From positions 72,643 through 136,642 of IMG/VR virus record IMGVR_UViG_3300025876_000005: DNA of 64,000 bases; one strand, written 5' to 3'. Source of the stretch: a virus. The translations under genes were made by a program, and so were the position numbers. The notes below the pieces were generated by a model. It did no database searches, was not told the DNA's origin, and was given only the letters and a program-made list of their open reading frames with translations. Shown here piece after piece: positions 6,268-63,857 of this stretch. Positions within the stretch are counted from its first letter, which is position 1. Every line of letters starts with the position of its first letter.

Positions 6268-6298
6268 AGCCTGAGATTTTTTAGTCTCGGGCTTTTTT
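6268..6298 (+). terminator. Intrinsic terminator
   Basis: AGCCTGAGA / TCTCGGGCT stem followed by a T-run. Confidence 0.7.
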
Positions 6299-63057: not shown

Positions 63058-63088
63058 TGTCAAACTTATTTGTTATATTTGCACTGTA
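63058..63088 (+). promoter_or_regulatory. Host-type early promoter of the tRNA cluster
   Basis: TGTCAA-N10-TATATTTG-C-ACTGTA. Confidence 0.7.
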
Positions 63089-63111
63089 ACAAAAACGTTC
63101 TTTTACATAAT

Positions 63112-63183
63112 GGTCCGTTCGTCTAGGGGTCAGGACATCACCCTTTCACGGTGAAGACACGGGTTCGATTCCCGTACGGACTA
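63112..63183 (+). tRNA. tRNA-Glu(TTC)
   Basis: Full cloverleaf; anticodon arm TCACC-CTTTCAC-GGTGA; no encoded CCA. Confidence 0.92.
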
Positions 63184-63189
63184 CAATAT

Positions 63190-63263
63190 TCCTCCATAGC
63201 TCAGTTGGTTAGAGCGGCTGACTGTTAATCAGTAGGTCCCTGGTTCGAGTCCAGGTGGGGGAG
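63190..63263 (+). tRNA. tRNA-Asn(GTT)
   Basis: Full cloverleaf; GCTGA-CTGTTAA-TCAGT. Confidence 0.93.
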
Positions 63264-63269
63264 CAAGTT

Positions 63270-63510
63270 GATTGTCAATGACGCTTATTGGCAGACTGTT
63301 GGACGCGGGTTCGAATCCCGCCACCTCCACAAGTTCTTTTACATATTACCAAAATATGGGGGTGACCGGCTTTTGACAATGGTTGATAGCGATAGGAAGA
63401 GACGATTGGCGTACGCAAACGACAACTTTGCATTAGCGGCATAAGTGCTGCTGATCTATTAAAGTCAAGGACTTGATAGATCACGTCAGCCTAGAACGAA
63501 ATCTAGGCAC
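63270..63510 (+). ncRNA. ssrA: Circularly permuted (two-piece) tmRNA: acceptor piece ~63270-63329, intervening segment, coding piece 63358-~63510, tag (A)ANDNFALAA
   Basis: T-arm plus CACCTCC-A lies upstream of GGGGGTG; they pair with a G3.U70 wobble. Tag frame 63415-63444. Confidence 0.85.
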
Positions 63511-63513
63511 TTT

Positions 63514-63599
63514 GGTCGAGTGGTGGAATAGGTAGACACGTCAGACTTAAAATCTGATGGGCAGTAATGCTCGTGCGGGTTCGATTCCCGCCTCGACTA
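63514..63599 (+). tRNA. tRNA-Leu(TAA)
   Basis: Class II cloverleaf; TCAGA-CTTAAAA-TCTGA; long variable arm. Confidence 0.92.
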
Positions 63600-63647
63600 C
63601 AAAGAAACAAACAGACTCTTTATTCATATAAAGACTGTTAAATGAAT

Positions 63648-63725: not shown

Positions 63726-63857
63726 ATGATTATGAAAATGTTAAACGAAAACCAAGGTAAGAGATTAAGTCAGGTCAAAGACTCTGAGAATCTAGCAATG
63801 TTATCAGTTATACTGGTCTTAATAGGAATAGTGGTAACGGCATTTGTCATTAACTAG
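63726..63857 (+). CDS. Small membrane protein (43 aa) within the tRNA cluster
   Basis: MIMKMLNENQGKRLSQVKDSENLAMLSVILVLIGIVVTAFVIN; C-terminal hydrophobic helix. Confidence 0.5.
   Translation: MIMKMLNENQGKRLSQVKDSENLAMLSVILVLIGIVVTAFVIN

Follow-up and report, generated by a model that had tools for sequence, protein, structure and literature searches.

The window analysed here, a stretch of 64,000 nt corresponding to positions 72,643 to 136,642 of IMG/VR record IMGVR_UViG_3300025876_000005 (a virus record of 176,489 bp with an estimated completeness of 59%), carries a circularly permuted tmRNA gene of 250 nt at positions 63264-63513 on the plus strand. The gene reads in the order acceptor piece, 28-nt spacer and then coding piece with the tag ANDNFALAA, and comes third in an array of 25 tRNA genes. 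The elements of the locus, with the basis for each call in brackets, are as follows.

63058..63090, plus strand: promoter-like motif (GTGTCAA, about 11 nt, TTATATTTG, N, ACTGTA) ahead of the tRNA/tmRNA array (putative function)
63074-81, plus strand: -7-like box TATATTTG within the promoter-like motif (sequence)
63190..63263, plus strand: tRNA-Asn(GTT) (ARAGORN, Rfam)
63264..63329, plus strand: acceptor piece, 66 nt plus post-transcriptional CCA (RF04321 alignment; RNAalifold with compensatory changes)
63301-04, plus strand: GGAC of the 3′ tRNA-like half (direct reading)
63305-21, plus strand: T arm GCGGG-TTCGAAT-CCCGC, strands 63305-09/63317-21 (direct reading)
63322-28, plus strand: acceptor 3′ strand CACCTCC (direct reading)
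63329, plus strand: discriminator A63329 (direct reading)
63330..63357, plus strand: intervening spacer, 28 nt, 75% A+T, predicted to be absent from the mature RNA (between the discriminator and the RNase P-type 5′ end)
63358..63513, plus strand: coding piece, about 156 nt (RF04321 alignment, RNAalifold; 3′ limit inferred from the tRNA-Leu start at 63514)
63358-64, plus strand: acceptor 5′ strand GGGGGTG (direct reading)
63365-77, plus strand: D-loop analogue (RF04321 alignment, RNAalifold)
63415..63444, plus strand: tag frame GCA AAC GAC AAC TTT GCA TTA GCG GCA TAA, giving ANDNFALAA and stop (TAA63442-44) (direct reading)
63514..63600, plus strand: tRNA-Leu(TAA) (ARAGORN, Rfam)

All of the sequence features claimed in a preliminary description of this DNA are present on direct reading, including the alanine identity elements (G3.U70 and discriminator A) and the tag frame ANDNFALAA-stop, which is moreover conserved in relatives. 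Its central claim, that of a phage-borne circularly permuted tmRNA gene, is upheld by the Rfam covariance-model search that it had proposed: RF04321 (tmRNA_permuted) matches 63270-63444 at 67.6 bits, the gathering score being 47 and the window-wide E-value 7.5e-11, in an alignment spanning model positions 1-213, its whole length. Within the tRNA-like domain the 3′ half comes first, a spacer separating it from the 5′ half downstream, and direct reading together with the RF04321 and RF00023 alignments gives a domain with a 7-bp acceptor stem, G3.U70 (G63360 opposite T63326; kept in 8/8 family sequences), discriminator A and T arm, and with no anticodon arm; the position after discriminator A63329 reads CAA, not CCA. 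The proposed check with ARAGORN succeeded in part, in that the program misses the gene at its default settings and, with the threshold lowered to 90% (-ps90), returns a ‘Permuted’ call with the same two tRNA-domain halves and the wrong tag. No one-piece tmRNA was found elsewhere in the 176,489-bp record. The present analysis thus establishes the identity of the gene, along with its structure, family and distribution as set out below.

For comparison we assembled seven unique close relatives and two more distant ones (L227, L290), all from marine viral contigs; eight sequences were folded. Run without a supplied structure on these 8 family sequences, RNAalifold predicts 69 pairs, 29 of which have changed on both sides with pairing kept, and these compensatory pairs span the acceptor stem, the T arm (GCGGG/CCCGC in the window versus GAGAG/CTCTC in L227 and L290) and all of the following elements.

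63294-301 with 63377-84, plus strand: inter-piece helix P2a (RNAalifold, covariation)
63284-90 with 63390-96, plus strand: inter-piece helix P2b (RNAalifold, covariation)
63267-76 with 63401-10, plus strand: inter-piece helix P2c (RNAalifold, covariation)
63433..63454 (63433-40 with 63447-54), plus strand: helix P5, with the stop codon in its loop (RNAalifold, covariation)
63453..63482, plus strand: hairpin A, 3′ of the tag (RNAalifold, several compensatory pairs)
63489..63508, plus strand: hairpin B, with an invariant ACGAAA loop (RNAalifold)

At one position of P5, for example, the G-U pair of the window is replaced by G-C in L003 and L009 and by A-U in L002, L005 and L227, whilst all 7 stem pairs of hairpin B have changed on both sides in at least one relative and its loop is identical in 8/8 sequences. 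Two P2-like pairings had been put forward as joining the pieces; AATGGT/ACTGTT stands, with covariation, but ATTGGC/GTCAAT is not conserved and lies in the wrong register, the supported helix being P2c. The covarying inter-piece helices fit a model of two base-paired RNAs, and a co-fold of the two predicted pieces reaches -80.7 kcal/mol against -62.5 +/- 4.9 for shuffles (z = -3.7); this single-sequence co-fold pairs the D-loop analogue otherwise than the comparative structure, which we prefer. A further candidate, pairing UGACG (63279-83) in the acceptor piece with CGUCA (63484-88) in the tail, was rejected, since neither L002 nor L005 conserves it.

The P2c helix ends 4 nt before the resume codon, and therefore leaves no room for pseudoknot 1. 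A systematic search of the 8-sequence alignment found no conserved non-nested helix with covariation; in the sole non-nested candidate, UUUUG of the D-loop analogue is complementary over 5 bp to the ACGAAA loop of hairpin B, and both sides are invariant. The earlier characterisation of the gene as very compact, with little room for pseudoknots, accordingly holds, at 250 nt and with no conserved pseudoknot found among 8 relatives.

A 4-kb stretch around the gene is present nearly whole in 14 DNA runs, and in part in 20 of the 24 listed runs, these runs coming from 10 marine or estuarine studies. Independent IMG/VR and JGI contigs show the same gene order, as do diverged relatives, and since it is seen across so many independent sources the order is not an assembly artefact, the possibility that the preliminary description had named as capable of overturning its reading. 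A decaying relic or an artefact, arising either from chance pairing of tRNA-like halves within a tRNA array or from misassembly, would be in keeping with the missing ARAGORN call at default settings, and with an RF04321 score far below those of cellular alpha and beta genes (113-162 bits); the E-value of 7.5e-11, the 29 compensatory pairs, the tag frame conserved across diverged relatives and the recurrence of the same order in many independent assemblies all speak against it. This explanation is already contradicted by the comparative data, and we attach next to no probability to it.

Metatranscriptome contigs from two runs span 63218-63468 without differences, and 63158-63538; these are assembled contigs for which DNA carry-over is possible, and their span is precursor-like rather than that of two pieces, assembled contigs being unable to show RNA ends; we accordingly take them as proof of neither transcription nor processing. 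One 49-nt metatranscriptome contig ends near 63330 beside an Illumina adapter, but bacterial tmRNAs share 27 of the 29-nt 3′ core and could be the source of its 31 nt; we therefore dropped this contig as evidence. The uncovered metatranscriptome stretch 63756-63843 proves nothing, and was likewise dropped.

The tag is a short internal frame without a start codon, with an ALAA-type hydrophobic end and a stop in the loop of the covarying P5 helix. Relatives retain this frame, their tags being ANDEFALAA, ADGEFALAA, ANDNFALAA and VKDNFAFAA, and the codons of the FALAA end show synonymous changes. Neither the phage record nor 8 related viral records yielded an SmpB gene, so that the RNA would depend on host SmpB. 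We suggest that host AlaRS would charge the RNA through G3.U70 and A73, and that the charged RNA, together with host SmpB, would enter stalled ribosomes, add (A)ANDNFALAA and free them, thereby keeping translation going during infection; it is the combination of alanine identity elements, conserved tag frame and conserved FALAA end that argues for ordinary trans-translation of this kind. The RNA might instead be made for a purpose other than ordinary rescue, either competing with host tmRNA for SmpB or re-tagging proteins to another fate. A phage tmRNA consisting of the tRNA-like domain only, that of DS6A, does inhibit host tmRNA when expressed in E. coli (PMC11915505; PMC4131195), and both the lack of a phage-supplied SmpB and an N-terminal tag half unlike the GENNYALAA type of the presumed host could be read in the same way. 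The window gene, however, has a complete tag frame under selection, with a resume codon, a stop codon placed in the loop of P5 and a FALAA degron that is conserved, and its ALAA end is a host-type degron, for which another protein fate is therefore not expected; we consider such a competing or re-tagging role improbable, and continue with ordinary ribosome rescue as the preferred function.

The tmRNA is directly flanked by tRNA genes on both sides in 8/8 family members, with P2c starting at most 7 nt from the upstream tRNA discriminator (3-4 nt in the close relatives of the window) and the downstream tRNA starting 5-8 nt past hairpin B, again in 8/8. An encoded CCA is absent from 22 of the 25 phage tRNAs, as it is from the tmRNA, and most of them, like the tmRNA, have CAA or CTA there; the phage also encodes a PF01743 nucleotidyltransferase (CCA-adding enzyme family). 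Because the gene lies directly between two tRNA genes, tRNA-processing enzymes could make all four tmRNA ends, and RNase P and tRNase Z are the enzymes that the literature presumes to mature two-piece tmRNAs (PMC3985003). We propose that transcription of the array would start from the promoter-like motif at 63058-63090, that RNase P would cut at two sites, G63358 and the tRNA-Leu 5′ end (63514), and that a tRNA 3′-end nuclease (RNase Z type) would cut after tRNA-Asn (63263) and after A63329, with CCA then added by a host enzyme or by the phage PF01743 enzyme. The acceptor and coding pieces predicted on this model measure about 69 and 156 nt, respectively, and would be joined by the acceptor stem and the long inter-piece helix (P2a, P2b, P2c); the spacer that this would remove is 19-28 nt long in relatives and poorly conserved.

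The promoter-like motif has five near-identical copies in the window, at 6296, 38506, 58417, 62186 and 63058. Bacteroidota-like promoters had been claimed for this DNA, a claim that finds no support in its strict form: the pattern TTTG-N17-21-TAnnTTTG is not enriched in the window, with 3 found versus 2.55 expected, which is chance level. What does precede the array is the recurring motif, ending in a TAnnTTTG-like box.

The phage record encodes a myovirus-type sheath, a portal and a capsid protein, the last with best matches in LR756500.1 (a 462-kb uncultured phage, 51% identity), in Prevotella Lak phages, in Tenacibaculum phages PTm1, PTm5 and pT24, and in phages of 630-735 kb. These capsid relatives correspond to the Mahaphage clade, predicted by Al-Shayeb et al. 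to replicate in Bacteroidetes (PMC7162821), and we infer that the host of the window phage is probably a member of Bacteroidota. As a host marker guanylate kinase is uninformative, the scores for Bacteroidota (57.6 bits) and Pseudomonadota (58.9 bits) being about equal. Proteins neighbouring the gene in a sister group of tmRNAs gave, as host clues, one query with a weak Microcystis-phage match only, the other neighbour being a Ro60-like protein spread over many phage groups. Blastn of the gene against 50,697 GenBank phage records returned nothing beyond short 3′-domain matches, and two representative relatives (L254, L227) had zero matches in the same set; there is consequently no isolate carrying a relative from which a host could be read. 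A megablast of 20 kb of the window gave tRNA matches only.

Through the sigma factor adjoining the array we identified 43 closer phage relatives (53-67% identity), one of them a complete 256-kb genome, and in these 43 no tmRNA of either form was found, from which we conclude that the tmRNA gene is sporadic and dispensable. Among related phages its distribution is confined to two groups, that of the window itself and another (L005, L009) with a sheath protein of 64% identity. Like the window phage, LR756500.1 and Prevotella phage Lak-C1 are tmRNA-carrying phages of the same capsid-protein clade, but their tmRNAs are one-piece and in standard order, at 397-413 nt, in contrast to the permuted window gene; that of LR756500.1, at 29% G+C, has no close sequence relation to the window gene, and that of Lak-C1 is likewise unrelated in sequence.

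Permutation of tmRNA is a textbook RNA gene rearrangement, known from three bacterial lineages. The preliminary description took the known tmRNAs of phages to be one-piece, a view that is outdated: of 133 unique phage tmRNAs, Buchholz et al. (2022) scored 53 as two-piece, nearly all of these from marine or aquatic phages, and described a two-piece tmRNA in the OM43 phage Melnitz (PMC9004378). With the two-piece tmRNAs of the marine T4-like myophages, Melnitz and the pelagimyophages among them, the window gene shares a permuted ssrA in a marine myovirus, no reported phage SmpB and the same presumed role in ribosome rescue or tagging during infection. Those tmRNAs are, however, described as alphaproteobacterial in type, whereas the window gene fails the alpha model; the Melnitz tmRNA carries a glutamine riboswitch; the T-loop is the canonical TTCGAAT in the window and GGCGGTA in the alpha type; and the window gene differs further in lying between tRNA genes and in having no conserved pseudoknot that we could find.

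Cellular two-piece tmRNAs (RF01849, RF01850, RF01851; merged as RF04321) have the same order, the same joining by acceptor stem and helix P2, and the same presumed processing. They typically keep PK1 and PK2 (PMC3985003), neither of which was found in the window gene, and the 27 alpha genes measured are 317-380 nt long as against its 250 nt; its lack of an encoded CCA is a further difference. A comparison with the known permuted lineages, as the preliminary description had advised, places the gene below all three cut-offs: 22.7 bits versus 50 for the alpha model RF01849 (local match only), 50.4 bits versus 84 for the beta model RF01850 (a full-length alignment, and the best of the three lineage scores) and 33.6 bits versus 70 for the cyanobacterial model RF01851 (local match only, this lineage being compared by model score alone). 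Thirty alphaproteobacterial genes score 133-162 bits on RF04321, and have a T-arm form GGGGGC(G/A)G(T/A)ACCC and a ...AGGATCGACG-type 5′ domain, both absent from the window gene. Two beta genes are again unlike it, with an encoded CCA, spacers of 45-78 nt and a 5′ domain of the form ...CTCGACAG or ...TTCGACAG; the beta-type gene of Massilia has a stretch of about 55 nt before the tag, with room for PK1, and a 3′ domain near-identical to that of the window, from which one acceptor base pair differs.

A scan of 185,579 GTDB species genomes for the 3′ domain of the window gene gave at least 120 loci, and ARAGORN identified, among the matches listed, 101 tmRNAs, 99 of them one-piece. The best 5′-domain matches to GGGG-N-TGACCGG(C)TTTTGACA, among the matches listed, are all one-piece Bacteroidota tmRNAs of 360-405 nt, the usual size of four-pseudoknot tmRNAs, and their bearers, among the matches listed, are Cyclobacterium, a Cytophagales MAG, Chitinophagaceae, Schleiferia, Algoriella, Bernardetiaceae and Owenweeksia. 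Within this comparison set, which was selected by 3′-domain identity, the 5′ motif GG-N1-3-TTGACA occurs in 20/28 one-piece Bacteroidota tmRNAs versus 2/43 from other phyla (Fisher p = 2e-9; assigned by titles, among the matches listed); it occurs in 0/30 alpha-type and 0/2 beta-type permuted genes. One-piece Bacteroidota tmRNA (RF00023; Cyclobacterium, Schleiferia, Owenweeksia) has a 3′ tRNA-like domain near-identical to that of the window, only two base-paired acceptor positions that were left open in the search being different, and the two have in common a 5′ form GAC-C/T-GG...TTTTGACA and tags that end in ALAA. The Bacteroidota forms, though, consist of one RNA of 360-405 nt whose tag starts GE- or GN-, whilst the window gene has the permuted order, a mature length of about 225 nt and an AND- tag, and no pseudoknot was detected in it.

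Permuted genes bearing the window-type 5′ domain were then sought in IMG/VR, and the scan returned 84 contigs, 75 with perfect acceptor pairing, comprising at least 65 unique sequences. Many of these related genes have Bacteroidota-like GE...AMAA tags (GEQVEMAMAA and GESVYMAMAA, for example), their spacers are 15-25 nt long, CCA is usually not encoded, and they share blocks with the window family outside the tRNA-like domain. The window gene belongs with them in a provisional, compact and phage-borne group, defined by permuted order, a 15-28 nt spacer, a GG-N1-2-TTTGACA 5′ domain, TTATT(G/A)GC in the acceptor piece and location on viral contigs. The pattern specific to the window subfamily is absent from the 185,579 GTDB species genomes, and text searches of the literature found no description of permuted tmRNAs in Bacteroidota phages. 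A 2025 tmRNA database lists 48 permuted genes in Bacteroidota-labelled genomes versus 24,380 standard ones (PMC11915505), and these 48 may be of this class, carried on phage contigs.

Synthesising these comparisons, we suggest that the window gene would belong to a phage-restricted superfamily of compact permuted tmRNAs, whose tRNA-like domain, being of the Bacteroidota one-piece type, would indicate a permutation separate from the alpha-, beta- and cyanobacterial events. As judged from sequence, the phage lineage of the window tmRNA is apparently undescribed and looks derived from a one-piece Bacteroidota tmRNA. The preliminary description had offered either an independent permutation or a transfer across phyla; with the failed lineage models and the Bacteroidota-type tRNA-like domain in hand, an independent permutation is favoured but not proven. 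The likeness of the tRNA-like domain to that of Bacteroidota could also have arisen by adaptation to the SmpB, AlaRS and RNase P of the host instead of by descent.

The tag begins AND-, not with the GE- or GN- typical of Bacteroidota, an observation that runs against Bacteroidota descent; AND- starts resemble proteobacterial tags, and AND-x-FALAA tags are typical of Betaproteobacteria. It may therefore be asked whether phages acquired the gene, permuted beforehand, from a cellular lineage, most probably the betaproteobacterial one, with later shrinkage and drift in phages and convergence of the tRNA-like domain towards the Bacteroidota type so as to suit host SmpB, AlaRS and RNase P. The AND-x-FALAA tag type would fit such a capture, as would the RF01850 score (the best of the lineage scores at 50.4 bits, with full-length alignment) and the near-identical Massilia 3′ domain, one acceptor base pair apart; a cross-class transfer of a two-piece tmRNA into a phage has, in addition, been proposed for Melnitz (PMC9004378). 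Against it, 50.4 bits is far under the cut-off of 84, the two beta genes differ in encoded CCA, spacer length, room for PK1 and 5′ domain, the sister group has Bacteroidota-like tags (GESVYMAMAA, GEQVEMAMAA), and the 5′ motif is strongly tied to Bacteroidota. A betaproteobacterial capture thus seems to us unlikely, albeit less so than either of the alternatives considered above.

We therefore return to a separate, Bacteroidota-derived permutation. That the locus is a working permuted ssrA gene in a 25-tRNA array of a large, uncultured marine myovirus with a probable Bacteroidota host, with the maturation, the rescue role and the separate permutation proposed here, is a reading in which we have good, if not complete, confidence. 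We are more tentative about its strongest form, and would put at somewhat below an even chance that this is a fourth, independent permutation from the Bacteroidota one-piece type, found in phages only, with the window branch the smallest natural tag-encoding tmRNA, at about 225 nt divided between two pieces, with no pseudoknot and with all four ends produced by processing of the neighbouring tRNAs.

A phage-borne two-piece tmRNA is in itself a known kind; what is new here is the Bacteroidota-type tRNA-like domain, the absence of a detectable pseudoknot, the mature length of about 225 nt and a position among tRNAs whose processing could set its ends. Phage annotations undercount such genes, because ARAGORN misses them at its default settings. 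If true, a separate Bacteroidota-derived phage lineage would be a new permutation event, and it would mean that phages, and not cells alone, maintain and diversify permuted tmRNA; the type of tRNA-like domain may, in turn, help to predict the host phylum of uncultured phages. The question of how small a tmRNA can be has so far been approached mainly with engineered E. coli variants, and a tmRNA with a conserved tag and no detectable pseudoknot, PK1 included, provides a natural test of the minimal RNA for trans-translation; were the permutation indeed a fourth one, as described above, the window branch would be a natural minimal trans-translation RNA.

The window's compact permuted tmRNA family has no detectable pseudoknot after the tag, whereas the sister group with GEQVEMAMAA-type tags (L254, L228 and relatives, from IMG/VR) seems to retain one there. 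Within the sister group, the loop pairing that follows the tag reads GAAGC/GCUUC in one sequence as against GGGC/GCCC in another. Some sister-group genes (L229, L230, L247, L255 and L287-L289) also seem to have very long tag frames; that of L229, the sole one followed to its stop codon, has ~40 codons, the usual length being ~10, and keeps the C-terminal end FAMAA.

In the window's family, the ACGAAA loop of the last tmRNA hairpin (63496-63501) is invariant in all eight members, as is the UUUUG of the D-loop analogue (63371-63375), and the two are complementary over 5 bp. As there is no variation on either side, this complementarity could reflect a tertiary contact or be coincidence.

The nearest phage by capsid protein, the 462-kb uncultured phage LR756500.1, differs in that its tmRNA is one-piece; the gene is 413 nt long and has a G+C content of just 29%:

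L015:1501-1913, minus strand, one-piece tmRNA of LR756500.1 (95.5 bits on RF00023)

Two repeats were seen around the tRNA/tmRNA array, and perhaps serve as common signals for processing or as leader elements. The 13-mer GTTCTTTTACATA lies within the tmRNA spacer (63333-63345) and again just upstream of tRNA-Glu (63097-63109), and CAAGTT directly follows the discriminators of both tRNA-Asn (63264-69) and the tmRNA (63330-35). An ORF and a protein gene also lie in or beside such arrays, here and in a more distant, 104-kb viral relative (L227):

63726-63857, plus strand, 43-codon ORF between tRNA-Arg and tRNA-Met, its hydrophobic C-terminal half predicting a small membrane-type peptide
L227:152-1696, minus strand, Ro60/TROVE-like RNA-binding protein gene adjoining the array

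The phage also encodes, outside the window, a protein of the CCA-adding/poly(A) polymerase family (open frame, 385 aa), in agreement with the absence of CCA from its tRNA and tmRNA genes:

G000:C1:8652-9029 (the phage's own record; locus L304), PF01743 protein

Finally, 30 Pseudomonadota genomes (e.g. G119, G199 and G103) give a second tier of matches to RF04321, the permuted tmRNA model, at 40-65 bits, a range far short of that seen for clear alpha and beta genes (113-162 bits); many lie on high-numbered, probably small, contigs. They could represent alpha forms rich in A+T, or else compact genes of the same kind as the window's tmRNA, carried by phages.
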